From Ignavibacteriota bacterium (lineage in GTDB: Bacteria > Bacteroidota > Ignavibacteria > UBA10030), in contig OY969585.1 in the NCBI GenBank assembly GCA_963701295.1, forward strand, positions 3,008,001-3,072,000: a DNA stretch of 64,000 bases. Direction: 5' to 3'. The notes beneath the pieces were generated by a model, which was not told where the DNA came from, ran no database searches, and saw only the letters and a program-made list of their open reading frames with translations. Made by a program: the position numbers and the translations under genes. Positions within the stretch are counted from its first letter, which is position 1. Each line of letters begins with the position of its first letter. Below, piece after piece: positions 23,020 to 57,087 of this stretch.

Positions 23020-24015
23020 CTATTTCAATACTTCTTTCAACAGCCACGTATTCCAATTGACTGACCATTCATTTACATTTTTTTCTGTGATCGATGTTAG
23101 TGGACTATAGAGAAGGGGTTCATTTGGCGCTTTACTTTTGATTATTTTATCAAGTAATATTGCAACCGATTTATAACCCATCTGGAAACAGTTTATTCCA
23201 ACAAGGCCTTGTACGTAACCACTCTTCACATATTCCAATTCGACCGGCACTGCGTTCCCGGCGACTACTTTCACTTCGCCTGCTTTCCATTTTAAGCTAT
23301 TCTTCACCTGAAGCGCTGAACTGGTAATAAGTATCCACCCTGCAATATTGGGATTAGTTTTCTGTGCTCGATTTAAAGTTTCTGACGCTATTTCAGGAAT
23401 ATTTAAATTATGATAAATATTATCCTGAGGGAGAATGATATGGGGATGTTTTTTTAATTCTTCTTTAATTCCTTGAAGTCGACTCTGCAAATTCAAAGTA
23501 TTTTTAGGCCCAGCAAGAATGGCTATTATTCCCTTCTCATTGATTGCGTTTGCAAGTTCCTGCATTAGCATTCGGCCAAATTTAATGTCATCCGCTCCAT
23601 AGTAAGCAAATCGTTTACTCTTTGGCGCATCAGAATCGAAACATATGATTGGTACTCCTCTATCAATCGCCTTATCGATAACAGGTGTCAGAAAATTTGC
23701 ATCAGAGCAGGATATTGCAATGCCGTCAATTTTTAGACGGGAAAAACGCTCAATTGCATCTGTTTGTTCCTCTACATTTTCCACAGAAGGTGTCTGCCAA
23801 TCAATAACAATATCGACTTTATATTTTTGACCCAGCTCCCTTGCGGCTAATTTCGCCCCCGAATATGCCGCGATGAACACGGGATTTGTACCTATTTTCC
23901 CGATAAGACCAATTGTTATTTTCTTCTGGCTGGAATTATTCTTACCTGATTGCGCAAAAATTATTCCGAAGATCACAAACACCAAACAGAAGAGAAAAAT
24001 GAATCTGTGTTTCAT
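23020..24015 (-). CDS. Periplasmic sugar-binding protein (RbsB-like), no adjacent transporter
   Basis: Signal peptide, NPVF..AY.GA, DGIAIS, FDSDAP.SKR.AYYG.D; paralog of the next gene. Confidence 0.88.
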   Translation of the reverse strand: MKHRFIFLFCLVFVIFGIIFAQSGKNNSSQKKITIGLIGKIGTNPVFIAAYSGAKLAARELGQKYKVDIVIDWQTPSVENVEEQTDAIERFSRLKIDGIAISCSDANFLTPVIDKAIDRGVPIICFDSDAPKSKRFAYYGADDIKFGRMLMQELANAINEKGIIAILAGPKNTLNLQSRLQGIKEELKKHPHIILPQDNIYHNLNIPEIASETLNRAQKTNPNIAGWILITSSALQVKNSLKWKAGEVKVVAGNAVPVELEYVKSGYVQGLVGINCFQMGYKSVAILLDKIIKSKAPNEPLLYSPLTSITEKNVNEWSVNWNTWLLKEVLK

Positions 24016-24194
24016 ACTCTTCATATCCCTTCGTAGGTATCTCACATTTTGTATCTCTTAGAACAAACTCAACTACGCATTGTGAAAATGGTTACATCGT
24101 CAACGTTATATAGCATCCTGCTTGTTCTTTCGAAATGAAGATACTATCTAGTATCAAAAATGATATCTCCATCAATCATTAAAACTTTATAATT

Positions 24195-25193
24195 TTATTG
24201 ATTTACCGCTTCTTTGAGTAGCCACTTCTTCCAATTAAGCGACCATTCCTCCAGATTTTTTTCTGTGACACGAGTCGGTGGATCGACAATTAATTCTTCA
24301 GTCGGTGTCTGATTCTTCAGTATCTTATTTAGCAAAATTTCGACTGATTTATATCCCCACAAAAAACAGCCTTGCGCGATAAGAACTTGTACATGGCCAC
24401 TTTTTAAATACTCCAATTCACTAGGGAGTGCGTCGCAGGCAACGATCTTAACTTCTCCTGGTTCCCATTTTATTGCATTTTTTATCCAGAGCGGCCAGCC
24501 ACCGACAAATACCCAGCCTCCAATTTGAGGATTTGCTTTTTGTGCTCGAGCTACTACTTCAGATGCCCTCTCTGGAAGTTCATCATGATAAAAGACTCCA
24601 TTTGGCAAAAGTTTCATAGATGGATATTTGTTGAGTTCCTCAATGACCGCATGAATACGGCGTTGTAGATTCGGTGCATTCTTATTACCACCAATAATTG
24701 CCACGACTCCTTTTTCATTCATTACTTGAGCAAGCTCTTTCATGAGTATACGCCCAAATTCAGCATTGTCTGAACCATAATAGGCAAATCGTTTGCTCTT
24801 CGGTGCGTCGGCATCAAAACAAACAATCTGAGTGCCAAAATCCACAGCTTTATTAATGGATGGAGTAAGAATATTTGCATCACTGCAAGCGACAGCAATT
24901 CCGGCTACACCCGAACGGCTGAGTTGGTCAACTGACTGAGCTTGTTCCCGAGGATTCTCAGTTTTTGGAGTTTTCCATTCAATGATGACCTCAACACCGT
25001 ACTTGGCACCAATTTCTTTTGCAGCCACACGCGCCCCTGCATACGCGGCTATGAACACCGGGTTCGATTGACTTTTTCCAATGATACCTATAGTGATTTT
25101 TTTCGCATCTCCTTTTTTGTTAACATCTTGGGCAAAAATCTGTCCGTAATTTATAAGAAGTAAACAGATAAGAAAAACGAGTCTGTGTCTCAT
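24195..25193 (-). CDS. Periplasmic sugar-binding protein (RbsB-like), no adjacent transporter
   Basis: Same motifs as its neighbour; GAAAGGA RBS precedes MRHRLV. Confidence 0.88.
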   Translation of the reverse strand: MRHRLVFLICLLLINYGQIFAQDVNKKGDAKKITIGIIGKSQSNPVFIAAYAGARVAAKEIGAKYGVEVIIEWKTPKTENPREQAQSVDQLSRSGVAGIAVACSDANILTPSINKAVDFGTQIVCFDADAPKSKRFAYYGSDNAEFGRILMKELAQVMNEKGVVAIIGGNKNAPNLQRRIHAVIEELNKYPSMKLLPNGVFYHDELPERASEVVARAQKANPQIGGWVFVGGWPLWIKNAIKWEPGEVKIVACDALPSELEYLKSGHVQVLIAQGCFLWGYKSVEILLNKILKNQTPTEELIVDPPTRVTEKNLEEWSLNWKKWLLKEAVNQ

Positions 25194-25286
25194 AGTATTC
25201 CCATCCTTTCGCCTATTCAAAAATAATTTGTGCTTCATAGACTTTATTCTTTCACGTAACTCCTACTATAGGTCCTACAAGATAAT

Positions 25287-26894
25287 TTATCTAACTGTGT
25301 ACCCTACTTGCCTTTTAGTTTCTACAGAATTTTGAGAATTTTGTGAAAGTGCTCCATATCCACTTTGAGAGTTCAATTTGAACTGATTAACAAGTGTTTG
25401 AAGAGTTTCCGTTAATCGGTTCAAATCTTCTGCAGCGCGGGCAATCTGTTGAGTGCCCGAAGCTGTTTGCTGAGTGACACTAGCTATGGCTTCCATGTTC
25501 TTACTAATCTGTTCGCTGGTGCTCGATTGCTCTTCGTTCGCGACGGCAATCTGAGAGACCATGTGTGTCACTTTCTGTGATATCTCGACAATCTCTTTCA
25601 GCGACGCACCCGCATGATCTGCCAATACAATTCCTTCATCCACTTGCTTCGTCGCATTTGCCATTGTGCGAACTGCACCATGACTATCGGATTGAATTTG
25701 TTGAATCATCCCAGCAATTTGTTTTGTCGCCTTTGTGGTCTGTTCTGCCAGCTTCCTCACTTCATCAGCCACCACTGCAAAACCACGACCTTGCTCGCCC
25801 GCTCTTGCCGCTTCGATAGCAGCATTGAGAGCCAAAAGATTTGTTTGATCTGCAATATGTTCAATCACTCCAATGATCTCGCCGATCTGATCGCTCGATT
25901 TTCCAAGGTTTTGGATTGTTCCAGCCGATTCTCGCACAACATTAGCGATTTGTTTCATTCCGCTCACAGTATCTAAGACGACTTTTCCACCTTGCTCTGC
26001 AGCTCCTTTGGCTTTTTCTGCGGTATGCGCAGCCTCTCCTGCATTCTCAGAGTTCACAGCGATGCTTTTGGCCATTTGCTCAACAGCTCGTGCTATCTCT
26101 TCCGATTGAGTCGTTTGTTCTTGAGAACCTGCAGCCATTTCTTCGGTACTAGAGCTAATTTGTGCGCTTGCGCTCGCAACCGAAGTTGCCGTTTCGGATA
26201 CTTGAATCAATGTGTCACGTATGGAACCCACAAATCGATCAAAGGAATTTTGGAGTTGACCCATCTCATCTTCTCGGGTCGTATTAAATTGTGTGTTCAG
26301 ATCGGCATTATCGATACTCACTTGTATAGCCTGGAGGTCTTTTACCAAAACCTTTGCATATCTAATCACCCATACAATTCCTAATACAAGGATGATTAAA
26401 TTAATAATTGAAGCCAGCGCTACTTGTCTATAAACCGCAGCCATGACCGGCTCTATAGAAATGCCAACAATCGTAGTCCCCAATTTCCTTCCCTTATATT
26501 CAACCGGACGCAACTCCAAGACAATATCTTTTGCATCATCAAATTCTACCTGGCGCAGTAGAGTCGTTACGTCATATTTCAATTGTCGCGGATTATGCTC
26601 AACAATGGTTTGGTTGGATTCATCCATGATCAATATAAAAGCAACAGCAGGATCCTTCTTTGCCCAGTTGAAGGACGTTTGAATGAGATCAAAATTTCCG
26701 TCGTTCAATCCAGCTCCAACCGAAAAAGAAAGCGTTTCCGAAAGTAACCGGGCATTATTGTCAGACGCGTCACGTCCAGCCGACTTTTGATTGATCCAGT
26801 AGTAGATGATTCCGAAGAAAGTAATCACCAATAATGGAAGAAGAAAAATTGCAATCATTCTGGATGTTAATGATTTTTTAATTATGTCCATCAT
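25287..26894 (-). CDS. Methyl-accepting chemotaxis protein
   Basis: Two TM segments, a periplasmic domain, HAMP (DEMGQL) and the hairpin [38 protein letters not shown]. Confidence 0.97.
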
Positions 26895-27072: not shown

Positions 27073-27162
27073 AGAAAGTCGCACAGAATAGTTCGATCGA
27101 ACAAGTGTCACCTTTATAGAATGAATAATATTTAAACCCTGTCTTATTTAGTAAAGACAGCA

Positions 27163-28464
27163 TTAGTTGTGTTTCATTTGTTTATAGCGTTTCAGCTTTC
27201 CTTTGACTGTATCGATGAGCATATCGCCTGAAAATGGCTTTGTCAGATAATCATCGGCACCGAGCCCTTTCCCATATCGTACCATACCCTCATCTGTCAT
27301 CCCACTCAGAAAAATGAATGGCACTAGACTTAGATGATGTAACTGTCTGACTTTCTCATAGAACGAGAAACCTCCTATTGTTGAGGTTTCAAGATTTATA
27401 TCAGAAATTATCAAGGAGGGCATGTCATTCTTAAGTCCGGTGAGCGCTTCATCGGATGTATTGTAAGCCTGTACGGTAAATCCCCCACCTTCAAGCACCC
27501 GTACGATCATTCCCAGAGTATTTTCATCGTCATCTATAACATAGAGCATAGGTTTATCCTGATGCTCTCCAAACTCCACAAGAACCTTTGATTCTATTCT
27601 CGAATGTGCTTCCGGCGAAATTTGGTACTTATTGCGAAGTTCATTAATAACTGCTGAGCGTTCCTTTGCATTCATGCCGGAAGTCCAGACCAGTGTAAAT
27701 GCATGTGAATAGGATTCTTCCTTAGCCTCTAACTCGAGCTTTGTATGCTCTTCCGTTGTAATGCGAAGGGTTGTTCGCAAATCTCGAAGTTGACTCTGTT
27801 CTTCCGGAGAGACTGCACCATCTGCCCACGCCAGCAACAACACTCGTTTATACATATCATGAGCTTGATCGATTGTTTTTTGTGTCTGCAAAACATCAGG
27901 AGCAATTTCCACTACCCTTCGCAGTACTTGTGCCGTTGCATTTTGCTGCATTGGCGTCTGTGTAGGTTTTTGTGTATGCACAGTCTCGATCATCTGCTGC
28001 GTTTCCATATGGACAGAATACGCTTTGTCAGAACTCTTTGGAGAAGTAACAGGTTCTTGCATTTGACGCGCCGCAGCATCACTCAGCAATTCATTATGTC
28101 GTTTTTCGGCTTCAAGTTTTTTTTGTTGCCATTCCTCACGTTGCGTCTGCTGATCAGTTTCTTTCTTTAACCGTTCCAATTCTGCACGCCGGCGATCCTC
28201 CTCAATTCTTGCTCGTGCAGTATTCTCCATAGCTCCGCGATTCGATACTGCAACATCCTTCTTCGCTGCTTCTTCTTTCAAGAAAGCGATCCGCTCTTGG
28301 AATGCATAGATGTATGCATTTGTTGGATCTATAATTCGTGCTTTGTCGAGATGTCCCTTCGCTTCTTCTAGAAGTCCGGCTTTAATACACTGATCAACCA
28401 CTTTTAGAATGAAGTTTGCTTCCGTTCGGACTTCTTCGTGATTATGTTGACTTGAGGGTGTCAC
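27163..28464 (-). CDS. Response regulator with TPR-like N-terminus, coiled coil, two TerB-like repeats and C-terminal REC domain
   Basis: AKGHLDKARIIDPTN; E/R/K-rich coil; LAWADGAVSPEE; REC motifs VIDDD, ISDINL, FLSG and YLTKPF. Confidence 0.8.
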   Translation of the reverse strand: MTPSSQHNHEEVRTEANFILKVVDQCIKAGLLEEAKGHLDKARIIDPTNAYIYAFQERIAFLKEEAAKKDVAVSNRGAMENTARARIEEDRRRAELERLKKETDQQTQREEWQQKKLEAEKRHNELLSDAAARQMQEPVTSPKSSDKAYSVHMETQQMIETVHTQKPTQTPMQQNATAQVLRRVVEIAPDVLQTQKTIDQAHDMYKRVLLLAWADGAVSPEEQSQLRDLRTTLRITTEEHTKLELEAKEESYSHAFTLVWTSGMNAKERSAVINELRNKYQISPEAHSRIESKVLVEFGEHQDKPMLYVIDDDENTLGMIVRVLEGGGFTVQAYNTSDEALTGLKNDMPSLIISDINLETSTIGGFSFYEKVRQLHHLSLVPFIFLSGMTDEGMVRYGKGLGADDYLTKPFSGDMLIDTVKGKLKRYKQMKHN

Positions 28465-28557
28465 TTGTTTTTTCGTTTCAAAATATATATTTCTGCTCTA
28501 CCATAACATCAAATTAATTTTTACTGTATCATTTCTTGGCATGTTCCATCTATAATG

Positions 28558-30153
28558 TTAGCACCGTTCTTGATACCACCATCGTCTGACAATATCGCTC
28601 ACGCTCGTTGATGTATTACTTATTTTCCATTTATCAAAAAACTTTATATCCGCACTTGCAGGTTCCGGATTGGGAGGATCCATCTGTACTCGCAACGGCA
28701 TGGGAACTGCATCACCGACTATCAATGCCTCTCCTTGACGAAGCGAAGGAAGAAGGTTCTCTAGACCGGGAAAGGTGTCTGCAACAAGCCGACGCACATA
28801 ATTCTGATCAACCGGATTTGTAAGACGCATTACTACAAAATTGTTGCATTGAGACAGAATTGTCTCAGAAATATCAGATGGCCTCTGACTAACGATCATA
28901 CAGCTTACGCCATATTTTCTTCCTTCTTTCGCAATACGTTCGACAGTGCGTCTTGCAGATTGCGTGCCCCCGGCATTTGAAGATAGATAATTATGCGCTT
29001 CTTCAAAAACCAGGAGAATCGGACATTCGCGCCGATTAATATTCCAAAAATTAAAATCAAATGCGAGTCTTGCCATAAGGGAAACAACGGTGTTGACGAT
29101 ATCGAAAGGAACACCACTCATATCCATGATCGTTACTTTTGATTCACCATTCGACCCAAACATTTTTGTTAGTAATTCTGAGAACGATTCAGAGTGGATG
29201 TATAGTCTTGGCCGGAACATGAAGTCATATCGCGGATCGTTCAGTTTTGTATCAAGCTGTACAAGGAACCGGGCAAACTTGCCATGAAAGGGCCCGCCCT
29301 TCTCTGTCTCAAGAGCTTCTAACTTCGAACGCACCTTCGCAAAATCATAGTACACAGGCGTATCAATGGTGAGAACATTTTTTAATTCCGGATTTTGAAG
29401 GCGTTTTGCCTGGAATACCAGCTCTTTCAAAATAGTGATATGGGTCGCCGCGTTTTCATCTGCAAGATCAACAAACACCTCAGTCATTTCCTGAAACGTC
29501 ATCAACCAAAATGGCAACTCGAGTTCAGTCAAATTCAGATACTGACTGTTTTTCGGGAATGCACTTCTATATTCGTTATGTATATCCAAAATAACAACTT
29601 TCGTCGCAGGATTGCCGATAACCTTCTGCAGGATGGAAGCGACACTACACGACTTCCCAGAACCGCTTGCTCCAATGATTGCGATGTGTTTCCCAAAGAA
29701 ACGATTTGGATCAAGATAAGCACGTTCGTTTTCAAAGTGTGTCAGTGTACCGGTTGAAAATCCAAACTTTTGGAACACCGAAAAAGCAATAGCAAGGTCC
29801 TTTTCTTCCAGCAGATACACAGGTGCTTCTGCCGTCGGAAAAGCAGAAACTCCTCGCTCGAAGATACCGTTTTTCACCGAACCGACGAGGGAGATGATCA
29901 TCTCATAGTGAGCAGTGGTTTTCCCATTTTCACCATATTCCATTTTCCTGAATTCTGATACCATTCCCAATAGCACCTGTCTGCCAACAGGCACAAGTAC
30001 ATACGAACCAATCTGTCCAATAGGATATGTTTTTCCATTTAGTTGCAATGAGAGGCTTGATAGATGGGGATCAAGAGCAACGGTTGCATTTGAGGTCGTA
30101 ACCTTGCGAATAACACCGATCCGTTTTTGATCCCATATTGTTTTTACAGCCAT
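28558..30153 (-). CDS. HerA/DUF87-family ATPase
   Basis: HAS-barrel-like N-terminus (IGQIGSYV), Walker A GASGSGKS, ILDIHNEY, Walker B VFEEAH, IAKEGRKYG and VSQRPS. Confidence 0.9.
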   Translation of the reverse strand: MAVKTIWDQKRIGVIRKVTTSNATVALDPHLSSLSLQLNGKTYPIGQIGSYVLVPVGRQVLLGMVSEFRKMEYGENGKTTAHYEMIISLVGSVKNGIFERGVSAFPTAEAPVYLLEEKDLAIAFSVFQKFGFSTGTLTHFENERAYLDPNRFFGKHIAIIGASGSGKSCSVASILQKVIGNPATKVVILDIHNEYRSAFPKNSQYLNLTELELPFWLMTFQEMTEVFVDLADENAATHITILKELVFQAKRLQNPELKNVLTIDTPVYYDFAKVRSKLEALETEKGGPFHGKFARFLVQLDTKLNDPRYDFMFRPRLYIHSESFSELLTKMFGSNGESKVTIMDMSGVPFDIVNTVVSLMARLAFDFNFWNINRRECPILLVFEEAHNYLSSNAGGTQSARRTVERIAKEGRKYGVSCMIVSQRPSDISETILSQCNNFVVMRLTNPVDQNYVRRLVADTFPGLENLLPSLRQGEALIVGDAVPMPLRVQMDPPNPEPASADIKFFDKWKISNTSTSVSDIVRRWWYQERC

Positions 30154-30201: not shown

Positions 30202-32499
30202 TTAATCGTATACTGCTGCAATTTTGGATGCACCATAAATTTCATTGTTCACCAACATCACCATATCCTCCGAATCAAACGGCTTCTGAAGAAATGGTAA
30301 TTCTTGTACGAGAGTACTCATATCACTCGGCAGATTTTCTATTAAGCTCCCGCTCATGCCTATGATTTTAATGTTTGGATTTATTCTCCTGAGGGCAGGA
30401 ATTGTTGTAAGTCCATTCATATTAGGCATCAACATATCAAGCAGCACAACATCGATCTTATTTCTATTTTTTTCATAGATCGAAATCGCTTCATGTCCGT
30501 CAAACGCAGTCATTACTTTGAATTTTCTGCTTTCGAGCGTAGCCCGTACAAGATCCTGCAAGCTTTTTTCATCATCGACAACAAGAACAGTTTCTCCATG
30601 TCCCATCGATAGGTTGCTGCCTCTCGCAACATGTTCCTTTACTTTTTCTTCTTTGGCGGGGAGGAATACCTTAAACTCTGTTCCTTTGCCGAGTTCGCTA
30701 TGGACATCTATGAAACCACCGTGGCTCTTTACAATGCTTAATACTGAAGAAAGGCCTAAACCAGTTCCTTTGCCCGGTTCCTTTGTAGTAAAAAATGGAT
30801 CGAATATTTGATTTATAATCTCTGGAGCGATTCCAGTACCTGCATCTTTTACACTAAGGACAACATAGGGTCCCGGTACCGCTCTAAAATGCAAACCTGC
30901 TTCCTGTTCATTGAGGACAACATTTTGCAAATCGATGGCAAGCGTTCCACCATTTGGCATAGCATCTCGGGCATTGATCGAAAGATTCATTAATACCTGA
31001 TATAACTGCGTTGCATCTCCCTCAACATTCCAGATTCCTTTCGGACAATGCCTTCTTACTTTTACCATAGGCGGGAATGTTTCTGAAACGAAATTGAGCA
31101 ATTCCCATAAGAGATGCTTAAGTTGAAGAGTCACATGTTCACCTTGCACTCCTCGCACAAACGACATCAGTTGTCTTACAACCCCTTCTCCACGCTTTGC
31201 CGAACTTTCCAATGTTCGTAAAATATCTTGGCTCGTTTCATCTGTGAGCTTCTCCTTCATAAAGGGAACAGCCAGAATAATGGGTGTAAGAATATTGTTA
31301 AGGTCATGCAAAAGTCCGCTTGCCAAAGTGCCCACACTTTCCAACCGTTGAGCACGAAGGAACTGCTGTTCTATAATTTTCTTATCGGTGATGTCTGTAT
31401 TAATAGTTAGGATTGATTTCGGCCGCCCATATTCATCCCGCACAAGACTCCATCGGCTTTCCATAACAATGGTTTTGTGCGTCTTTGTGACTTGCTTCAA
31501 TTCACCAAACCAAGAGCCCTTATCTTTCACATCGAGCAATGCATGTTTTATACTGTCCGCTTCCGTATGGAGTAGTTGGGATGCATTTTTTGCTAGAGCT
31601 TCATCCCGCTTCCACCCATAAATTCTCTCTGCACTATTGTTCCAATAGATTATATTATCATCCAGGTCTCGAACAACAATCGCATCCTGTGCAATATCCA
31701 GCAAATTTGCTTGTTCTCTAATTTTTTCTTCCGCTCGTTTACGCTCAGTAGCATCTTGCATATAAATCGCAAGGCCATCTTCCGCAGGATATGCCCTAAC
31801 TTGCAGCCATGAATTTAACGCTGAATAGTATTCTTCAAATTCCGCAAACTTGTGGTCTGTCATTGCACTATGTAATGCTTTATATGCTACGGAGTCCTTT
31901 GGTGCTGGGAATTCACTCCACCAATTTTTCCCCCAGAGGTCTTCGCGCCGCTTGTTTACTTTTGCCAAGAAGACATCCGATCTCGGATTCAAGTACTTAA
32001 CTTCCCATGAGTTGCTCACCGAAAAAAAAGCATCTGTAATACTGTCAAAGATGGTGATTATTTGTTTCTGAGATCGTTCGAGCTCTTCTTCCAATCGCTC
32101 GTTTTCCCACTCTGCTCTCCGCTTTTCAAGAGCATTCTGGATGGCACCAGGTAACCGGCGAAGACTCGATTTCAGAATGTAATCATCGGCGCCTTCTTTG
32201 AGACATTCCACTGCTATTTCTTCATTCTTCATTCCAGTAACGAGAATAAATGGAATTTTTGTCCCTCTTTCACGAACGATCTTCAGCGCCTCTAGACCAC
32301 TGAACTGAGGTAATGAATAATCTGCAAGCACTACGTCCGGAGAGAATGTTTCAAGCTCCTTTAAGAATTTACTCTTGGAAGCAACTCGGCGTGTGTTATG
32401 TTCAATGTTTGCGTTCCGAAGTTCTCGATCGATCATTTCAGCATCGATAGGAATATCTTCTAGAATCAGAATGTTTAAAATTTCGGCTTGTTGTATCAT
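30202..32499 (-). CDS. Hybrid histidine kinase REC-PAS-PAS-HisKA-HATPase-REC
   Basis: LILED...ADYSLP...DYILK, two PAS/PAC segments, HDLNNIL, NARDAM, FDPFFTTK..GKGTGLGL and a C-terminal REC. Start moved to MIQQAE to avoid overlap. Confidence 0.93.
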   Translation of the reverse strand: MIQQAEILNILILEDIPIDAEMIDRELRNANIEHNTRRVASKSKFLKELETFSPDVVLADYSLPQFSGLEALKIVRERGTKIPFILVTGMKNEEIAVECLKEGADDYILKSSLRRLPGAIQNALEKRRAEWENERLEEELERSQKQIITIFDSITDAFFSVSNSWEVKYLNPRSDVFLAKVNKRREDLWGKNWWSEFPAPKDSVAYKALHSAMTDHKFAEFEEYYSALNSWLQVRAYPAEDGLAIYMQDATERKRAEEKIREQANLLDIAQDAIVVRDLDDNIIYWNNSAERIYGWKRDEALAKNASQLLHTEADSIKHALLDVKDKGSWFGELKQVTKTHKTIVMESRWSLVRDEYGRPKSILTINTDITDKKIIEQQFLRAQRLESVGTLASGLLHDLNNILTPIILAVPFMKEKLTDETSQDILRTLESSAKRGEGVVRQLMSFVRGVQGEHVTLQLKHLLWELLNFVSETFPPMVKVRRHCPKGIWNVEGDATQLYQVLMNLSINARDAMPNGGTLAIDLQNVVLNEQEAGLHFRAVPGPYVVLSVKDAGTGIAPEIINQIFDPFFTTKEPGKGTGLGLSSVLSIVKSHGGFIDVHSELGKGTEFKVFLPAKEEKVKEHVARGSNLSMGHGETVLVVDDEKSLQDLVRATLESRKFKVMTAFDGHEAISIYEKNRNKIDVVLLDMLMPNMNGLTTIPALRRINPNIKIIGMSGSLIENLPSDMSTLVQELPFLQKPFDSEDMVMLVNNEIYGASKIAAVYD

Positions 32500-32536: not shown

Positions 32537-33313
32537 CTATGTCTTTGGAAGTGTGAAATAAAACTGGGCCCCATTATCCACTTTTCCCTCAGCCCACACA
32601 CGTCCGCCATGTCTTTGGATAATCCGCTTGACAATAGCCAGACCAACTCCTGTTCCATCAAATTCTTCTATCTCGTGCAATCTGTGAAATACGCCAAAGA
32701 GACGATCGACATATTGCATATCAAACCCAACTCCATTATCATGTATGCGATACACTATTTCCCCATCATATGAATATGAATTGATTTCCACTTCTCTTTT
32801 CTCTCGATAACGAGTATACTTGAATGCATTTGAAAGAAGATTGTACCATACTTGACGAATGAACGTTACATCTCCATATGCCGGAAGTAATGGGTGAAGT
32901 ATTATTGCGTACGAGGATGGTACGGTTTCACACACCAGTAATTCGTCAATAACCTTTTGTGCTATCACTGTCATATCAATAAAAGAATGTTGGGGATCAG
33001 ACTTAACCAATTTCGAAAATGCGAGCAACCCGTCAAGCAGTTTCTCCATTTGTTTGGAACTTTCTGTAATCTGCTGTAACAAGGTAGACTCTTTCGTATC
33101 GAAATTCGCTGCATGTCGTTTACTGAGCCACTCACAATTGTTTTGGATTGCACGCAACGGTGCACGCAAATCATGCGATATAGAATACGATAATGCTTCT
33201 AATTCATTGGAGACAGCCTCAACAGTCATGTCCAGAGTGTGTTGATAAGATACAAGTTGGCTTCGCATACTCTGGACATCTTCTTTCCGACTTTCAGCAA
33301 TTGTATATTCCAT
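32537..33313 (-). CDS. Soluble histidine kinase of the phytochrome-kinase type with no sensor domain
   Basis: SYSISHDLRAPLR, NLLSNAFKY, DNGVGFD, LFGVFHRLH and GTGVGLAIV; start overlaps the cheB stop (TAATG). Confidence 0.9.
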   Translation of the reverse strand: MEYTIAESRKEDVQSMRSQLVSYQHTLDMTVEAVSNELEALSYSISHDLRAPLRAIQNNCEWLSKRHAANFDTKESTLLQQITESSKQMEKLLDGLLAFSKLVKSDPQHSFIDMTVIAQKVIDELLVCETVPSSYAIILHPLLPAYGDVTFIRQVWYNLLSNAFKYTRYREKREVEINSYSYDGEIVYRIHDNGVGFDMQYVDRLFGVFHRLHEIEEFDGTGVGLAIVKRIIQRHGGRVWAEGKVDNGAQFYFTLPKT

Positions 33314-34470
33314 TATAGAACTTCTCCTCTTCCAATAGGAATGCGTGCTTTTGCCCATGCTTGCGCCAATCGTTCGAGTGCTACTGCTATATTATCAAGC
33401 GATAGCATAGAATCCACAAGACCTTCTTCATGTGCTGCCCGGGGCATACCATACACTACACAGCTCTCTTCATCTTGACCGATTACATATCCGCCTTTCG
33501 ATCTGATATGCTTCAGTCCTTCGACCCCATCTTTTCCCATGCCGGTCATAATAATACCAAGCAACGGACCTTGAAATGCCGCAGCAGCAGATGTCATCAT
33601 GATATTTGCTGAAGGACGATATAAGATGTCTGCTGGACCGTCTGAGATTTCTATTATTACACGAGAACCGTTGTTACTAAACGCCATTTGTTTTCCACCA
33701 GGAGCAATCAGAACTTTTCCGGGTTCAAATACTTCCCCATGCTCAGCTTCTTTGACATGAACCCTACTGATACTATTTAACCTTTCTGCCAATGTTCTGG
33801 TAAACTGAGGTGGCATATGCTGAACAATACCGACACCTAAGGGAAAACGTTCGGGAAGTTGTGGAATAATATTGAGCAGCGCTTGCGGTCCACCGGTCGA
33901 TATTCCAAGTACTACAGCGTGAAATTTCAATACCACACTTTCGAAACTAATATTCTTCGGTTTTTGCTTGTGATGAACTGTTTTACCATGAGAAGACTGT
34001 ACCAGTCTCCTCATACGAAATCGTGTCTGCACTAAACGGCTCCGTGCAATTTGTTTTACTTTCTCAATGAGTTCGTCTTTGATATTTTTGATATTGATCG
34101 AGATATATGACAAATCTTTAGAAATAAAATCAACGGCTCCTAAGTCAAGTGCCTGCATGGTAGCTTGTGCACTTTCTGTCGTCAAAGAACTCACCATAAG
34201 CACAGGCACCGGCATTTGATCCATAATAGTTTTGAGTGCAGTAAGTCCATCCATCCCGGGCATTTCAATATCCAATGTAACGATGTCTGGTTTCAAGGTG
34301 CTGATCTTTTCTATTCCTTCGTTTCCATCACTGGCAGTCCCAATGACACGAATTTCGGGATCTGATTCGAGCATGAGCTTCAACGATTTCCGCATGAATG
34401 CGGAATCATCAATCACAATAACTTTCACTATATTTTCTTCTGACGGCATCATAAAATCTTCCCTACTCAT
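33313..34470 (-). CDS. cheB: Chemotaxis methylesterase CheB (REC plus methylesterase)
   Basis: Motifs DDSAFMR, LDIEMP, GISTGGP, VQHMP, MTGMGKDG and VVYGMP. Confidence 0.97.
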   Translation of the reverse strand: MSREDFMMPSEENIVKVIVIDDSAFMRKSLKLMLESDPEIRVIGTASDGNEGIEKISTLKPDIVTLDIEMPGMDGLTALKTIMDQMPVPVLMVSSLTTESAQATMQALDLGAVDFISKDLSYISINIKNIKDELIEKVKQIARSRLVQTRFRMRRLVQSSHGKTVHHKQKPKNISFESVVLKFHAVVLGISTGGPQALLNIIPQLPERFPLGVGIVQHMPPQFTRTLAERLNSISRVHVKEAEHGEVFEPGKVLIAPGGKQMAFSNNGSRVIIEISDGPADILYRPSANIMMTSAAAAFQGPLLGIIMTGMGKDGVEGLKHIRSKGGYVIGQDEESCVVYGMPRAAHEEGLVDSMLSLDNIAVALERLAQAWAKARIPIGRGEVL

Positions 34471-36176
34471 GCTACCTTCCCAAAATGATGGGCAACTAAT
34501 TCGATAAATCGACCTACATCGATAACTAAAATAACACTCCCGTCTCCAAGAATAGTAGAACCCGCAATACCAGGAACATCACCGAGGTAATTGCCCAATG
34601 TCTTGATAACTACCTCTTTCTGTCCTTGGAGAGAATCGACGAGAAGTCCAATTCTTTTTTCTGCCCATCCGACTATCACAACATATGAAACAACCGAGTG
34701 TTGAATAGTTTGGTTTTTTCCAATGATGTCGGACATTCTTGCGAGCGGCAGAATAGTATCACGCACTCGTATAACTTCACGTCCTTGAATGCTGTAGATT
34801 TCTTCAGGAGTAATCCGAACGATTTCGAGTACTGCACTCAACGGAACAGCAAATATCTCATCAACTACTTTCAAGAGGAGACCCTGAATAATCGCAAGTG
34901 TCAAAGGTACCTTCAAAGTAATGATTGTTCCTGTCCCTACATTTGAATCGATCTCGACGATACCTTTTAATTTTGCTATGTTGGTTTTGACAACATCCAT
35001 TCCAACCCCTCTTCCCGACACATTTGTAATTTCTTGTTTCATGCTAAAACCCGGAATAAAAATTAAATTGAGAGCATCGGATTTTGACATTTCTGTCGCT
35101 TCAATTTCTGAAATCAACCCCTTTTCGATCGCTTTCTTTTTTGTTTTATCAATATCAATGCCGCGGCCATCATCTTCCATGGTGATCAGAATGTAATTTC
35201 CATCACGCTCTGCGTTGACTACAACTATTCCTTGCGCCGGCTTCCCTTTGCTCTTTCTCTCTTCGGGAGATTCGATGCCATGATCGACGGCATTACGAAT
35301 CATATGAATGAGTGGATCTTTTAATTCTTCTATAATGGATTTATCTAATTCAGTTTCTTTTCCATAGATCTGGAGATCGACTTCTTTCCCTGTCATGCGC
35401 ATAACCTCTCGGGCAACAAGCGGAAGTCCGCTGAACACTTTTTCTATTGGAACCATTCGTGTTTTCATGACCGCCATTTGAAGTTCCGTTGTCACAAAAT
35501 CAATCTGACTGCTGACATCGGCAATCTGCTTCGACATGTCTAAACGTTCATATTTTTCCGTCAAGGATTGTGTAGCTTGTGAAAGACGGTTGCGAGCAAG
35601 GACAAGTTCTCCGATAAGATTCATCAAATCGTCAAGTCTGTCAACATCAACTCGGATGGTTGTATCAACTGCATGTTGAGGCTGAATCTCAGTCAGTTCA
35701 GCACCATGGACAATTGGTTCTAGTATTGATGATGCTTCAGCTTGAACTGAAACCGGCGTAGTTTGCTGTTGCATCCCTCTCCGCAATTTTTCTAGAATAC
35801 TATCCATTTCTATAGGTTGCAGATTCCGACTTTCAATCCGCTGTAAGAGCACACCCGCGGTCTTATGAACGTCGATAAGCACATCAATTATTTCACTAGT
35901 GGCAGTGCAGTCGCCCTTCCGAAGTTTATTCAACAGGTCTTCACTCGTATGTGCCAATTCAGCAATTTGGTTGAATCCAAGAAATGACGATGTTCCTTTT
36001 AGTGTGTGCATTTCTCTGAAAATATTGTTCAGCACATTCACATCTAATGGAGCTTTTTCCAGTGCAAGCAGATCCTGACTCAAGTGATCGAGAATTTCCC
36101 TTGCTTCAACAAGATAGCTTTCGAATATTTCCCGCATCTCTTCATCAAAACCAGGTGCTGTCTGTTCATTGTCCAT
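34467..36176 (-). CDS. cheA: Chemotaxis kinase CheA (short, apparently lacking P2)
   Basis: Hpt FREMHTLKG, TIRVDVDRLD, HMIRNAVDHGIE, SGRGVGMDVV and a C-terminal CheW domain; 569 aa. Confidence 0.96.
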   Translation of the reverse strand: MDNEQTAPGFDEEMREIFESYLVEAREILDHLSQDLLALEKAPLDVNVLNNIFREMHTLKGTSSFLGFNQIAELAHTSEDLLNKLRKGDCTATSEIIDVLIDVHKTAGVLLQRIESRNLQPIEMDSILEKLRRGMQQQTTPVSVQAEASSILEPIVHGAELTEIQPQHAVDTTIRVDVDRLDDLMNLIGELVLARNRLSQATQSLTEKYERLDMSKQIADVSSQIDFVTTELQMAVMKTRMVPIEKVFSGLPLVAREVMRMTGKEVDLQIYGKETELDKSIIEELKDPLIHMIRNAVDHGIESPEERKSKGKPAQGIVVVNAERDGNYILITMEDDGRGIDIDKTKKKAIEKGLISEIEATEMSKSDALNLIFIPGFSMKQEITNVSGRGVGMDVVKTNIAKLKGIVEIDSNVGTGTIITLKVPLTLAIIQGLLLKVVDEIFAVPLSAVLEIVRITPEEIYSIQGREVIRVRDTILPLARMSDIIGKNQTIQHSVVSYVVIVGWAEKRIGLLVDSLQGQKEVVIKTLGNYLGDVPGIAGSTILGDGSVILVIDVGRFIELVAHHFGKVA

Positions 36177-36219: not shown

Positions 36220-36831
36220 TCAACTGCTTTTTTCATTTTCTTTCCACGCCGTCACAACTTCATCGATCTTTGATTGATGTTCTGGTGTTTTCATGTACGA
36301 AGCATTAACATCGAACGATTTGGGACCGGCTTTATCCTCTTCAACATAACGTCTCGCTTCGTCGGTTTTCTTCTTCGCAGTTTCAAAATAATTCAGCTCA
36401 TTCAGCAATTCCTTGCGAACTGACTCTATCAGATGGTTTGCTGCGCCAATTTTCTGTGCCGTTATATCCTGTACCTGTAAAGCTACCGTGATATTGCTTG
36501 TATTCTCCTTCAATTCTAATAGGGTTTGTCTGATTCCTGTAAGCATTAATAGTTGACGTTCAGAAATTCCTTTCTCATCGAATTCTTTTAAACCATTCTC
36601 TACCATATGAATCTTCGTTCCCATCTGGTCGAGTACGTCGAGAATTTCAACTGTAGCAAGTTCCGTCGCTTGTGTTACCGTGTTCAATTGAACCGATGCA
36701 TTAGGAATCTTACTCGAACTGTCTTCAATTGCATTCTTGATGCGATCGAGCAATGTAATAACCTTCTGGAGTGCAGTAATTACGCTTTCTGTTGTCCCTG
36801 CATCCTCATTCACTTTTTTTTCATCTGGCAT
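36220..36831 (-). CDS. cheZ: CheZ-like phosphatase
   Basis: L..VTQATE.AT..IL and LQVQDITAQ (DxxxQ); acidic C-terminal peptide IDEVV. Confidence 0.75.
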   Translation of the reverse strand: MPDEKKVNEDAGTTESVITALQKVITLLDRIKNAIEDSSSKIPNASVQLNTVTQATELATVEILDVLDQMGTKIHMVENGLKEFDEKGISERQLLMLTGIRQTLLELKENTSNITVALQVQDITAQKIGAANHLIESVRKELLNELNYFETAKKKTDEARRYVEEDKAGPKSFDVNASYMKTPEHQSKIDEVVTAWKENEKSS

Positions 36832-36900: not shown

Positions 36901-37638
36901 TTATAATTGTCCGGCACGTGCCTTACTTAACAAGGACTCAACCATCTTCTTCCGCTCTATATCACCTACGATTTCCGGATCATTCGGAAGTGGAAGATTG
37001 ATGGAGAGCGGCTGAACTGTTGGAATGCTAAAGAATCCAGTTGTGAGCTTTCTCAGCTCTTCAGCAACCGCCTGGATCGTACCCATGACTGTACCAATGT
37101 GTTGCTGAGTGATATCCTGCACTTGAAGTGCCATCATAATTTCTGTGCAATCATCTTGAAGGTCCTTCAACAATCGTTCTAGATTGCTTGTCGGACCGCT
37201 CATTTTCATACTGCGAAGGTGCGCTGCCCACGCTTCAGCAAGCGCTACAATGTCCGCATCCCAACCCGATTTCTCGACCAATGTCTTCACGATTCCTGCC
37301 ATTTTATTCGTTGCAACACCAAGATCAGATGCTATCATACCTGAGGACACAGAAGTGATTACTTGGTCAAGTGTTGCCACCATTTTATCCAACGTATTTA
37401 ATATTTGGGTAGACGCTTGTTCCGTCGCTTCTGTCACACGTCCGAGTTGACCGGCAGCCTTGGGGATATTCACCATCGCCACTTCCAGCACTGCTTTGAG
37501 ATCTTCAATAGCTGGACTAATATCATTCAGAAAACCAGCAATTTCATCGAGAACCGGTATAGTTCGCTGACCGTATTCACAGAATACTTTCACTTCAGCG
37601 GCTTTTTGTAAAACTTTTTCAACTTCCTGTTGATTCAT
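36901..37638 (-). CDS. cheZ: CheZ-like phosphatase (second paralog)
   Basis: LGRVTEATEQASTQIL and MALQVQDITQQ. Confidence 0.72.
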   Translation of the reverse strand: MNQQEVEKVLQKAAEVKVFCEYGQRTIPVLDEIAGFLNDISPAIEDLKAVLEVAMVNIPKAAGQLGRVTEATEQASTQILNTLDKMVATLDQVITSVSSGMIASDLGVATNKMAGIVKTLVEKSGWDADIVALAEAWAAHLRSMKMSGPTSNLERLLKDLQDDCTEIMMALQVQDITQQHIGTVMGTIQAVAEELRKLTTGFFSIPTVQPLSINLPLPNDPEIVGDIERKKMVESLLSKARAGQL

Positions 37639-37690: not shown

Positions 37691-38083
37691 CTATTCCGTA
37701 CTCACTTGAACGGTCTTGAGAATACCCTCGATCTTCTCTTTCAATTCCTGCGGCGTGAATGGTTTCATAATGTAACTATTAACTTTTGCCTGAAGTGCCT
37801 CTACGACATCATGCTCGGTTCCGCGGGTGGTGATCATGAGAATCGGCATGGATGAATACAATGGATTCGATCGAACAATTTTGATAAAATCCAATCCGTT
37901 CATTTCGGGCATATTCCAGTCGGTAATAATAAAATCCACTTTGCCGCTTGGAAGTTTTTCAAGTGCCTCTTTTCCATTTGAGGCTTCAATTGTATCTGTG
38001 AAACCCACAGTCTTTAACGCATTAGTGATAATGCGTCGTATGGTGATCGAATCATCCACAATGAGAATCTTTATTGATGCCAT
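37691..38083 (-). CDS. cheY: CheY
   Basis: Motifs LIVDDS.TIRRI, ITDWNMPEMNG, PILMIT and YIMKPF. Confidence 0.9.
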   Translation of the reverse strand: MASIKILIVDDSITIRRIITNALKTVGFTDTIEASNGKEALEKLPSGKVDFIITDWNMPEMNGLDFIKIVRSNPLYSSMPILMITTRGTEHDVVEALQAKVNSYIMKPFTPQELKEKIEGILKTVQVSTE

Positions 38084-38225: not shown

Positions 38226-38612
38226 TCACCCTGTATGTGGAATTGTTTTATGGACAAATCGAAAAACTTCTCGTTGAATGGCTTCAGTGCTGAGAGGTTT
38301 TTCTAAAAATGCAAGCGCTCCACTTTCTAATGCAAGGTCTTTGTCCTTCAAATCGGTCATCGAAGAGAGGACGATAATCGGGATATCCTGATACTCGGGC
38401 GTCTCTCGAAGTGTACGGATGAATTCATATCCATCCATATCTGGCATATTAAGATCGGTGATGATGAGATCGAACTTTTCTGACGGCATTCGCTCCAGCG
38501 CTTCTATTCCATCTCCCGCCGTAACCACTCGAAATCCTTTCATATTCAATGCTGCAGCAACGAACTTCCTCACAGTCGCTGAATCGTCTACAACTAGGAC
38601 TACTTTTTCCAT
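38226..38612 (-). CDS. Single-domain CheY-like response regulator
   Basis: Motifs VVDDS, ITDLNMP and FLEKP. Confidence 0.9.
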   Translation of the reverse strand: MEKVVLVVDDSATVRKFVAAALNMKGFRVVTAGDGIEALERMPSEKFDLIITDLNMPDMDGYEFIRTLRETPEYQDIPIIVLSSMTDLKDKDLALESGALAFLEKPLSTEAIQREVFRFVHKTIPHTG

Positions 38613-38618
38613 ACTCTA

Positions 38619-39500
38619 CTACTCCTTCTTATAAGCGGTCGTCTTAGGAATGCTCACCAGTTTAAATGCGGTTGAAATCCTGTGCAACATTTCCGAGAAA
38701 CCTATAAAGAGATATCCGCCCCGATTGAGGCTGTTGAACAGATCTCCAACAACCTGGATTTTTGCCTTCTCATCAAAGTAAATGAGAACATTTGCGCAAA
38801 AAATGAAATCGAAGTGCATCATGTTCCGCATCTTTTCCCGATCTATCAAATTAATGTATTCGAAACGAACCAGTTCTTTTACTTCTTTTCGCAATCGATA
38901 GACACCGTTGGATTGGTCAAAATATTTATTCAAATATAGTTTCGGCGTATTGCGGATTGCATATTGATTGTATTCTGCTTTGTGTGCCATGTCGAGTACT
39001 GCTCTATTAATATCTGTGCCGATGATTTCGATACGCAACTCCGGATATCGAGGTTTAAGGTGTTCGAGATACAACATAGCTAATGAATAAGGCTCTTCCC
39101 CGGAAGAACATGCAGCACTCCATATTCTCAGTGTTCGATTATTATATGCCTTCTTTGCTTCGATGACTTCTTCAGCAAATTTCTTTTGAAATGCATCGAT
39201 CTGCGCATCGTTCCGAAAGAAAAATGTTTCGTTAATTGTGATCATATTGCATAAAAATTCAAATTCACAATCTTTTTGCTGACCGTACCTCAACAAATGA
39301 AGATACTCTTCGAAATGGTCGACCTTGAGTACTTGCAGGCGTTTGACAAGTCTTCCCTCGATTAAGTACTTCTTCTTCTCAGGGAAAAAGATACCAGTTT
39401 TCGAATAGATGAAGTCCCTTAGCATAACGAAGGTTTCTGCCGTAAGCTTCGGAGAAGAGTCAACTCGGATTCTATCTTGGGCCTGTTCAAACACGATCAA
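38619..39500 (-). CDS. cheR: Chemotaxis methyltransferase CheR
   Basis: Motifs TINETFFFR, IWSAACSSGEEPYS, GTDIN, FCANVLIYFD and GGYLFIG. Confidence 0.96.
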   Translation of the reverse strand: MIVFEQAQDRIRVDSSPKLTAETFVMLRDFIYSKTGIFFPEKKKYLIEGRLVKRLQVLKVDHFEEYLHLLRYGQQKDCEFEFLCNMITINETFFFRNDAQIDAFQKKFAEEVIEAKKAYNNRTLRIWSAACSSGEEPYSLAMLYLEHLKPRYPELRIEIIGTDINRAVLDMAHKAEYNQYAIRNTPKLYLNKYFDQSNGVYRLRKEVKELVRFEYINLIDREKMRNMMHFDFIFCANVLIYFDEKAKIQVVGDLFNSLNRGGYLFIGFSEMLHRISTAFKLVSIPKTTAYKKE

Positions 39501-40951
39501 GTTGCTCCACGATCAAGTGACTCATTTCTGTAATTTGATGTAATCGCTTCCAATGGAATTCCAGCAGCTTGGAACGCCATAAGAGCGGCTTCTCGCACCA
39601 TCTCGTTTTCGTCTTCGACAAATCGAGCGATACATTCTAAAGCACGGCGTGTTGGCATAGTTACAAGCTGTTCGATCATATGCACACGAGACCAAGGATC
39701 CATGTCAACCATAACTCTTTGAAGAAATACAGCAGCACGATCACAGTCGATTCGAAAGAGTGTATCTGCAATAATTTCCCAATCTTCTTGATTCGCCTCG
39801 TACCAAGCTTCTGAGGCTATATCAAATGCCCGTTCCAATTCACTGTCATCAATCCTGTATCCACGAAAACCCTTATAGGAACGCACAAATTCACCGGCAA
39901 GTTTACCAAGCAGCATCATGATCTGTATTTTTCCACGTGTTATTCCTGCTTCGAGGCACTCGACAGCTATTTGAAAGACACGTGGTCGGACTGACATCTG
40001 CGCTACTATGACACAATCCATCTCTTCAGAAATCCCAAGAGAAAGAAGCAGTTCTTTTGTTACAACAGGATCCTTAAATTGAATAAGTCCTTTTGCGGCA
40101 CTCAGTTGAATTTGATGATTATCATTATGCAAAGCGTGCAGTAAATCATTTCGCATTTTGTCATCTAATTGATATTCTAGATTACATCGTTCGATGATTA
40201 ACATAACTTCGTGCAGCAGTATATCCCGAAGTGGATCTTTGATAGCTTCATAATTTGCTAGAAGCACTTCAAGTGTATCAGCATCTCCTACAATTCCTAA
40301 AGCGTCGAGCAACGCGAAGAGATATATTTGCTCCGCGTTGCCGACGTTGATTGCATCCCGATATTTACCCTCGAGGTATTCACGGACAGAATCGCCGCCA
40401 ATTTTTCCGAGCGCTTCAATTGCAATGATACGGGTGAATGGATAATGCTCAAACGTATTGAAAATTGGTTTAACCGCTTCTCGGCTACCGATATTGCCGA
40501 TAGCCTCAATGGCTGCAACAAGGACATTCTGATCTTGATCTCTCAAGAGCGGTAAAAGGTAATAAATAGGCTCCTTGCTCTTGATTTCGCCAAGAATATC
40601 CACTGCTAATTTGCGAATGTCCTTGTCAAGATCACTCAAATATGGAACAAGTGCGTGAACGGAAGCTCCTCGTAATTGTACGAGCAATTTTGCAGCGAGG
40701 TTTCGAGAAGTGATATTTTCATCCCCGATATGATGGACGATCGCACGAGCAGTAGCCACTCCACCGATGCTAAGAAGTGTACGTGAGACAGCATCCTCGA
40801 CTCCTCTGTTTTCATCCCCCAAGGCCGTGGAAAGAACTGCAAGGGCATTCCGGTCATCACATCCAGATAGATCTTCTGCAGCTCTGCGTCGGACATCAGG
40901 ATCCGGATCTGTCAGCAGAAGACAGATAAGGTTGTTCGTATGTTTATTCAT
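39497..40951 (-). CDS. HEAT/PBS-lyase repeat protein
   Basis: Repeated L.D.D..VR..A...LG units; its stop overlaps the cheR start. Confidence 0.9.
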   Translation of the reverse strand: MNKHTNNLICLLLTDPDPDVRRRAAEDLSGCDDRNALAVLSTALGDENRGVEDAVSRTLLSIGGVATARAIVHHIGDENITSRNLAAKLLVQLRGASVHALVPYLSDLDKDIRKLAVDILGEIKSKEPIYYLLPLLRDQDQNVLVAAIEAIGNIGSREAVKPIFNTFEHYPFTRIIAIEALGKIGGDSVREYLEGKYRDAINVGNAEQIYLFALLDALGIVGDADTLEVLLANYEAIKDPLRDILLHEVMLIIERCNLEYQLDDKMRNDLLHALHNDNHQIQLSAAKGLIQFKDPVVTKELLLSLGISEEMDCVIVAQMSVRPRVFQIAVECLEAGITRGKIQIMMLLGKLAGEFVRSYKGFRGYRIDDSELERAFDIASEAWYEANQEDWEIIADTLFRIDCDRAAVFLQRVMVDMDPWSRVHMIEQLVTMPTRRALECIARFVEDENEMVREAALMAFQAAGIPLEAITSNYRNESLDRGAT

Positions 40952-41111: not shown

Positions 41112-42086
41112 TTAATCTGACATGCTTGGCAGTGCAATAACTTTCTGGATATCCGGATCATCAAGATTATCACGAGTTATCACGCACACATCGATGTCAA
41201 TCTTGGAGGGAACTTTCTTTCCACGAATATAATCGACAATTGTCTTAACACAAAAGTATCCCATCCGTGCTGGATCTTGGGTGACAAGTGCACTGATTTC
41301 ACCATTCTTTAATGCTTCAACTGCAGGAGCCGGTGAATCGAAACCAACAAATTTGACTTTACTGGTCAGGTTAAGCTTTCGTAAAGCAAGAAGCATACCC
41401 ATTGTTGATTGTTCATAAGAGCAGAAGATACCATCAGCTTCCTTTAGTTTATCAGCTATCTTCATACATTCATTCAAAGTTTCTTCTGTTGTACCGCTCA
41501 CATATCGATTCTTCTCGATCAAATGAATGCCTTTGTATTTTGATATAGCTTCAAGAAAACCTTCTTCACGATTCGTAATATTGGATTGGCCAACTTTGAC
41601 TCGCAGCATAACAACCTTACCTTTTCCTCCAAGGAATTTGACTAATTGCTCACCTGCAATACCCCCTGCTTTTTTGTTGTCTATACCGACGATACTGATG
41701 AAATCTTTTCCTGGTGTTCCTTTAAGCACACTATCAAAAATTAGGACAGGTATTTTTTTCTTTGCAGCTTTAGCAACTGGTCCAGCTAAAGCTTCCTTGT
41801 CCAATGGTGCGAGAGCTATCCCAGACATACTATCATTGATGCACTGCTCAACAATTGAAATCTGTTGTGCCACATCATCATCCTTTAACGGAGCTTTCCA
41901 GACAACCTCAACACCTCCTAAGGCAACCGCTCCTAATTTTACACCTGAGTGTACTGATTTCCAGAAAATGGCAGAGTTGCTTTTAGGAATAATAGCAATC
42001 CTAATTTTTTCTTGTGGAAGTACAATTGTCCATATTCCAGACATAAGGATCAAAATAAACAGGAAATCAATAATTTTCTTTTTCAT
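41112..42086 (-). CDS. Periplasmic sugar-binding protein (RbsB-like) inside the che cluster
   Basis: Signal peptide, IAIIPK....FWKSV..G, GIALAP, REEGF, VGFD and QDPARMGY. Confidence 0.9.
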   Translation of the reverse strand: MKKKIIDFLFILILMSGIWTIVLPQEKIRIAIIPKSNSAIFWKSVHSGVKLGAVALGGVEVVWKAPLKDDDVAQQISIVEQCINDSMSGIALAPLDKEALAGPVAKAAKKKIPVLIFDSVLKGTPGKDFISIVGIDNKKAGGIAGEQLVKFLGGKGKVVMLRVKVGQSNITNREEGFLEAISKYKGIHLIEKNRYVSGTTEETLNECMKIADKLKEADGIFCSYEQSTMGMLLALRKLNLTSKVKFVGFDSPAPAVEALKNGEISALVTQDPARMGYFCVKTIVDYIRGKKVPSKIDIDVCVITRDNLDDPDIQKVIALPSMSD

Positions 42087-42177
42087 AATTCTATCTCTTT
42101 CGTTTAAATACATTTTGCATTGAAAATAAATAATGCGGAATAAGTTTCCTGCTCGTTATAATTTTTATCTAATCGAT

Positions 42178-56559: not shown

Positions 56560-57049
56560 TATTTTTACCTGTACAAGACATCTCTTTCACTCATATTCTT
56601 TATTCATTAATAAATGAAGAGCGCAAATGTTTCCTGTCTGATACGATATACTTTTTTATCGGCAAGCCTAGAAATAAAGTCACTAAAGCGTTCGCTTTAA
56701 TGTCGAAGACCATTCTCTGTATCTTGCTCTATTTTCATTAGGTGTTCAATTCATTTATTAATAATCTTTGAACATTCCATAGTGAGAGCTGAACTGGAGA
56801 GCTTCAAACGTTGTACTTTGTGCCGCAATGGGACCGCCCTCTGAGTTCTTCACTTCTCATTGATAAATCCCTATTAACCCGCGCAATAAATTGCACTGGC
56901 TATCGGTTTTTCCAGCTGAACTTCCTTTTGAATCTGTTGTTGATTTATGCTACACCATTCTTAGAACAATCATTCGTTATAAATTCATCGCTGTCATTTT
57001 CTCATAAATAAACATTGATACAAACCTATAAAATATTTCTAATTATTGC

Positions 57050-57078: not shown

Positions 57079-57087
57079 GTTATTGAA

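Follow-up and report, generated by a model that had tools for sequence, protein, structure and literature searches.

What does a HerA-family ATPase do when its neighbours are signalling genes? The question is raised by a herA gene in the window analysed here, a stretch of 64,000 nucleotides from an Ignavibacteriota genome assembled as one contig of 3.64 Mb and 99.3% complete. The genome encodes three HerA paralogues, A, B and C; the one in the window is paralogue A (hereafter HerA-A), and its surroundings are as follows (window positions).

23020 to 26894, minus strand: MCP gene and two periplasmic binding protein genes, whose placement differs among relatives
25287 to 26894, minus strand: MCP chemoreceptor, downstream of the adaptor
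27163 to 28464, minus strand: adaptor-type response regulator, 433 aa, GTG start (Pfam, model and homologue profiles)
28558 to 30153, minus strand: herA, clade A paralogue, 531 aa, with HAS barrel, RecA-like core, shortened helical bundle and C-terminal hook (Pfam DUF87 and AF2)
30202 to 32499, minus strand: hybrid histidine kinase REC-PAS-PAS-HisKA-HATPase-REC, 765 aa from the likely start (Pfam and relatives)
32537 to 33358, minus strand: short HisKA-HATPase kinase, 273 aa (Pfam)
33313 to 34470, minus strand: cheB, receiver plus methylesterase (Pfam)
34467 to 36176, minus strand: cheA (Pfam)
36220 to 36831 and 36901 to 37638, minus strand: two cheZ-like genes (Pfam)
37691 to 38083 and 38226 to 38612, minus strand: two stand-alone receiver (cheY-like) genes
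38619 to 39500, minus strand: cheR
39497 to 40951, minus strand: HEAT-repeat gene
41112 to 42113, minus strand: periplasmic binding protein
42178 to 42681, minus strand: cheW

The hybrid kinase has 764–765 aa in relatives, and the longest form given by the ORF finder here begins at 32661. The short kinase has a counterpart of 489–502 aa in several relatives and none in others; the copy at 32537–33358 lacks the N-terminal sensor region of the 489–502-aa form in other species of the genus. Further along the window, on the opposite strand at 57046–58582 and with 36–37% GC, an HTH_3 regulator is followed by a 344-aa protein that has a J-domain-like C-terminus with an HPD motif and gives no Pfam match at 1e-5. 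A promoter and terminator scan of the locus remained at background (44 against 45.7 and 13 against 13.0 in shuffles), and the hairpin at 27139–27160 was therefore disregarded.

HerA-A is a member of the HerA/DUF87 ATPases by the motifs of its central domain as well as by its HAS barrel and fold. The ORF at 28558–30153 matches Pfam DUF87 (E 2e-35), and the motifs that the sequence-only reading had listed as intact could all be read from the sequence: Walker A (GASGSGKS, residues 161–168), Walker B (LVFEEAHN, 381–388), EGRKYG (410–415) and SQRP (422–425). Walker B and EGRKYG are invariant in all 23 clade-A copies. The AF2 model (pLDDT 88.5) resembles 9c1m/8xav and places the strands of the HAS beta-barrel across residues 11–114; its best Foldseek matches are all HerA, led by DUF4297- and SIR2-HerAs. 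A fusion scan of 30 of the 150 representative matches, namely the top or long ones, showed only ATPase-family Pfam domains.

The helical bundle is where HerA-A departs from its best-known counterparts. In the DUF4297-HerA structure 8xau, an insertion subdomain grips DNA through R284 and K287, according to the accessible part of the report (PMC11291478). Structural alignment pairs residues 277/285 of HerA-A with 276/321 of 8xau, showing that this subdomain is gone; only 7 residues stand in place of the 44 in 8xau that hold R284/K287, provided that the numbering of the paper is that of the 8xau chain. Residues 264 to 289 span 26 positions in 23 of 23 clade-A rows and 31–37 in 104 other rows of the lineage, and this bundle-tip deletion of 8–10 residues is fixed in and specific to clade A. 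Because the DNA-gripping insertion is missing, a translocase role for HerA-A is doubtful. The absence weakens a role on DNA but leaves DNA work possible, because Sulfolobus HerA also lacks the insertion (same source, same part), a 28-residue version of the bundle stretch occurs in many distant HerAs, and the basic residues nearby (R275, K277, R295) are conserved.

We then asked whether a partner nuclease is encoded anywhere. Neither NurA (control positive in 7 of 14) nor SIR2_2 (control positive in 1 of 14) was found in the whole genome; Cap4/DUF4297 gave no match genome-wide, and neither did its control. The direct neighbours of herA are a kinase and a receiver protein, with no DUF4297/Cap4 or SIR2 gene among them. 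Thus the earlier statement that no NurA, Sir2 or nuclease gene is nearby holds at the locus, and for NurA and SIR2_2 it extends to the genome. Nor is the gene an orphan displaced from such a partner, a possibility raised by the same reading: its closest homologues do not sit beside nurA or sir2, and its gene order is conserved. In the tree, an Ignavibacteria-type HerA clade (support 99) is distinct both from the Sir2-linked and from the long-insertion HerAs, and forcing clade A together with the latter was rejected (p-AU 1.7e-6), with a caveat for long branches that meet among the outgroups. The proposed distinct HerA subfamily with signalling neighbours is therefore borne out as a nuclease-free clade. 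Ordinary SIR2-HerA defence pairs also occur sporadically in the class (L086, L192–L194), and one of these genomes has a core HerA as well.

These results also bear on an anti-phage or stress-suicide module whose effector is encoded elsewhere, which we consider improbable. The best profile and PDB matches of HerA-A are indeed anti-phage HerAs (PADLOC PDLC04105, 489 bits; NF042944, 407 bits; 9c1m/8ziq/8xau), but 407 bits is far from the NF042944 cut-off of 850, and long-insertion HerAs score 603–832 bits on the same profile. No effector gene is close by, the GC of herA is comparable to its surroundings, and in the first sample all 36 family genomes carry at least one HerA copy of the lineage (47 of 61 overall). 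A core gene that is kept vertically, is strongly conserved and does not group with long-insertion anti-phage HerAs does not fit the defence module suggested earlier.

The setting that the sequence-only reading did not recognise, and that this analysis adds, is chemosensory. The hybrid kinase, herA and the adaptor lie on one strand behind cheB, at the end of a complete chemosensory cluster: the core cheA, cheW, cheB, cheR and MCP genes are all present at the locus, with linked non-motor regulators. Nevertheless, the genome has no FliG and no flagellin (controls positive in 4 of 14 each), so it lacks both the motor switch and the filament protein of a flagellum. We therefore compared 71 family genomes with a completeness of 85% or more, of which 31 have this CheA and 9 have FliG. 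Clade A was detected in 20 at E <=1e-245, and G002 adds a split copy. It lies behind cheB in 21 of the 22 genomes with CheA and without FliG, and was found in none of the 9 FliG-positive genomes, all of which have CheA, and in none of the 40 genomes without this CheA. The threshold of 1e-245 overlooks fragments; in five negatives rechecked loosely, the best identities of 54–62% belonged to other clades. Since the 21 clade-A genomes are relatives from four genera with one origin, the co-occurrence amounts to one event plus linkage.

In all six flagellated loci that we read, the che genes continue into flagellar basal-body genes; flgB, flgC, fliE, fliF, fliG, fliH, fliI and fliJ were confirmed by Pfam in L240, and FliF in L236 and L237. 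In two further flagellated genomes FliG lies ~6 kb from cheA by coordinates, and the unrooted CheA tree separates the flagellar group with support 100. The flagellar linkage of the che genes is likely ancestral, because in Ignavibacterium album they lie within a 71-gene flagellar cluster (PMC3362086; the part of that paper available to us has no occurrence of HerA). At this position, the flagellar genes have been replaced by the kinase-herA-adaptor module. Because herA sits behind the che cluster where flagellated relatives carry flagellar genes, it likely belongs to a rewired, non-swimming output of the chemosensory pathway. Pili were dropped as a marker of the cassette: this genome has a pilus-type ATPase cluster, as do 68 of the 71 family genomes, and the cluster does not track the cassette.

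The module is tightly kept. The reported spacing, 48 bp behind the hybrid kinase (upstream ORF end 30202) and 93 bp ahead of the receiver gene, was reproduced, and in 23 of 23 full-length clade-A copies the adaptor follows herA immediately and the hybrid kinase precedes it (two of these kinases being contig-end fragments). This order is retained down to 76% HerA identity, while HK2, MCP, CheW and binding protein genes move or disappear. Clade-A herA is under strong purifying selection: its dN/dS of 0.024–0.046 is below that of the adaptor, kinase, cheA and cheB genes in each of the seven usable pairs (nine computed, two saturated). Such selection, like the family-wide presence, speaks against the anti-phage reading, and it largely refutes the view of herA as a decaying or neutral passenger in a relic chemotaxis cluster. 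That view is very improbable in our judgement, even though relic che genes persist in Chloroherpeton after flagellar loss (in the part of PMC3362086 available to us) and herA copies are split in G002 and L128 and missing from G355; the neighbouring genes are split in the first two assemblies too, which points to sequencing error. Contigs from RNA libraries of relatives cover the region, which argues weakly in the same direction: they span kinase-herA (X3) and herA-adaptor (X1), but lack a silent-stretch control and show no single transcript, and the shares in the RNA runs were small (0.01–0.11).

One genome has lost the gene. In G355 (98% complete), 46 bp separate the hybrid kinase that follows cheB from the adaptor, and nothing of herA is left. 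The CheA of this genome groups as sister to that of the genome studied here (support 100), so the absence is a secondary loss, and kinase and adaptor can persist without HerA.

The adaptor had been labelled TPR/TerB/REC, a label that stands for its receiver and is looser for the rest. The receiver is firm (E 4e-16, with Asp355 and Lys409 retained). In profile searches of 28 homologues, TPR_2 was found in 5 and ENT in 17; Pfam TerB was found in none of the 28, structure 2ou3 matched at E 0.085, and atlas leads for TerB/ENT stayed <0.9. With TPR and TerB so weakly supported, 'TerB/ENT-like helical repeats' is the fairer label. The order of domains is a TPR-like hairpin, a long coiled coil, a disordered linker, two TerB/ENT-like helical repeats and the receiver, and the model likewise has a hairpin of helices, then an 85-residue helix and, beyond a disordered linker, a helical domain followed by the receiver. 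Pfam found no output, enzymatic or DNA-binding domain in it, and Foldseek returned almost exclusively receiver domains.

The adaptor belongs to what is apparently an expanded TPR-like/TerB-ENT-like/receiver family without an established name. This genome has at least seven members, one of which adjoins herA; relatives lie in G000:C1 near 131776–134380, 302403, 462899, 1230708 and 1397268–1399834. The family includes tandem pairs and one member without a receiver here, and 3–4 copies also occur in other families. In the adaptor tree, those of clade A group together (support 96). An adaptor-family gene follows HerA, at a distance of at most three genes, in three HerA lineages: clade A; family f9, where a BrkB/YihY gene intervenes in 3 of 3 genomes; and clade C of genus g45, where the member has a degenerate receiver and follows pilC/pilB-type genes. 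In two of the clade-C loci (L169, L170), herA lies between pilin-like ORFs without a Pfam match and T2SSF/T2SSE genes, after which come an adaptor whose receiver misses the usual acidic residues and then clade-C kinases. Neither the HerAs of the three lineages nor their adaptors form one clade, and a single ancient HerA-adaptor clade was ruled out (AU p 2e-54, plus the adaptor tree). The recurrence is only suggestive, because signalling genes cluster.

The other HerAs of the lineage give a mixed picture. Here, paralogue B (59% identity; G000:C1:3489524-3492393) lies behind a GAF-PP2C gene, in which GAF was assigned by reading and SpoIIE separately, with mutS three genes further up; paralogue C (54%; G000:C1:1-5692) lies behind a HAMP-GAF-kinase-REC-REC gene and then a REC-kinase gene. 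All three paralogues thus directly follow a gene for a signalling enzyme, at 29–48 bp. Among 301 genomes of the class sample the lineage occurs in 64, concentrated in four families, and neighbourhoods were read for 140 non-redundant HerA ORFs of at least 420 aa, with split or partial copies excluded from the trees. PP2C-linked herA is spread across families f1, f2, f5 and f17, and this state is likely ancestral. Clade A (support 1.0; SH-aLRT 100 in a tree of 34 chosen rows) is sister to clades C and D (96). In f7 (L085, L177–L179, L198, L199) herA is followed by a HAMP-adenylate/guanylate cyclase gene and PP2C is absent from the loci; in f1 that cyclase gene is placed upstream of PP2C-herA.

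The regular position of an enzyme upstream suggests that the ring might act as a scaffold that binds or controls it (the hybrid kinase in A, GAF-PP2C in B, the REC-kinase in C), and so would stand upstream of the adaptor in the signal flow. Sir2 is likewise upstream of HerA in the defence loci examined, and HAS is the most divergent domain between A and B (47% identity, against 75% in the RecA C-part), as expected for changed partners. However, the three upstream enzymes have no domain in common, sucD occupies this position in clade D, PP2C lies downstream in f17, and G355 retains its kinase without herA; we regard this arrangement as unlikely.

The same neighbourhoods feed a stronger rival, in which HerA-A is a housekeeping DNA motor (repair, recombination or pilus-linked DNA traffic), an extra copy of which was captured for expression control and contacts neither neighbour. 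Its fold and best matches are DNA-engaging HerAs. In f17 (L183–L191), where 23 of 24 sampled genomes have a HerA copy, the order is mutS-herA-PP2C with a mutS-herA gap of 0–3 bp in 9 of 9 loci and a HerA of 506–508 aa, and mutS lies within a few genes of many clade-B copies. Clade D herA lies between sucD and ndk in 12 rows (two copies lack such neighbours), in a housekeeping operon seen in L050, L059, L069, L071 and others; sucD and ndk were identified by Pfam, and the full order is what we take to be purS-purQ-gatA-sucD-herA-ndk-NUDIX. The g45 copy precedes pilC/pilB-type genes, the conserved basic residues and the insertion-free Sulfolobus HerA fit as well, and herA could be lost in G355. 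Orphan FtsK-HerA paralogues of Thermus act in repair and DNA donation, as told in the accessible part of PMC5365140. Against this stand the lack of a NurA or SIR2_2 partner in the genome, the fixed clade-specific deletion at the bundle tip, the repeated location beside signalling genes, and the fact that a third copy held at dN/dS 0.03 while two other paralogues are kept needs a job of its own. We take the DNA motor to be a possible but somewhat doubtful account.

The reading that we tentatively prefer is a phosphorylation-gated ATPase ring in chemosensory output, activated via the adaptor. The MCP-CheA array and the PAS hybrid kinase would together control how far the receiver of the adaptor is phosphorylated. 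The adaptor, whose domains all serve protein binding, would then dock on the HAS ring, at the face where DUF4297 binds and activates its HerA, and the ring may use ATP to drive a conformational change or remodelling of a protein target, instead of feeding DNA to a nuclease. HerA-A would thereby amplify or assist the kinase and adaptor without being essential to the pair. In favour are the fixed order of the triad, the co-occurrence, the flagellar swap, the low dN/dS and the adaptor proximity in three lineages. The signalling enzyme upstream of all three paralogues is also consistent with such a ring, as is, by analogy, the DUF4297-type HerA, which has almost no activity by itself until a partner binds HAS and activates it (in the accessible part of PMC11291478). 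The loss in G355 and an adaptor family of at least seven members with one beside herA argue against an obligate partnership, and the sister clade D in its sucD/ndk operon and the f17 copies behind mutS argue against a signalling role.

A bolder form of the phosphorylation-gated ring, more doubtful than the ring itself, is that the chemotaxis pathway was re-plugged into a HerA ring after loss of the flagellum, with dedicated TPR-helical repeat-receiver adaptors switching a HerA that acts on proteins. If true, this would be the first chemosensory system with a HerA-type ATPase effector, with each of the three paralogues a version of one undescribed HerA signalling machine tuned to its own signal. 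HerA-A itself is a real, conserved, new HerA variant in a new setting, with an inferred mechanism. The studied HerAs that we encountered all work on DNA, mostly with a nuclease or NADase, while a core, triplicated, nuclease-free clade that recurs in phosphorylation operons hints that the ring serves regulation. In addition, the locus offers a clean natural example in which the flagellar genes behind a chemotaxis cluster gave way to another module: a single family contains flagellated as well as non-flagellated versions and one natural deletion of herA.

Our full-text literature search, whose coverage leaves most subscription papers outside and includes part of bioRxiv 10.1101/2025.07.10.664194, returned no HerA with kinases, receiver adaptors or chemosensory clusters. 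Among the known systems, DUF4297-HerA (Hailibu; 9c1m, 8xau/8xav, 8ziq; NF042944; the accessible part of PMC11291478) shares the HAS-RecA-helical bundle-hook architecture and the ATPase motifs with HerA-A, at 32–34% structural identity and TM up to 0.83. HerA-A differs in having no nuclease gene, 7 instead of 44 insertion residues and less than half of the NF042944 cut-off, and its lineage is core and multi-copy whereas DUF4297-HerA is sporadic. SIR2-HerA (8wiv/8wld; Nezha 8j4u) has the same fold, with the partner gene directly upstream, but SIR2_2 is missing here and Sir2-linked HerAs lie on a separate branch. The NurA-HerA end-resection machine (4d2i; NF040937, NF040819) combines HAS and a RecA motor without a large insertion, like HerA-A, but is only about 23% identical and far under the cut-offs, in a genome without nurA. 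The GAF-PP2C and HerA pair of Ignavibacteria-type bacteria, represented here by paralogue B, belongs to the same HerA clade; clade A arose later by duplication and differs in its neighbours, in the fixed bundle-tip deletion and in its chemosensory setting. For a che cluster joined to a classical kinase, the nearest logic may be that of Myxococcus Che3-CrdS-CrdA (as described in the accessible part of PMC3147164): both systems pair the two with a non-motor response regulator, whereas the regulator here lacks a DNA-binding or AAA+ output, the CheY- and CheZ-like genes have been retained, and a separate HerA ATPase is co-encoded.
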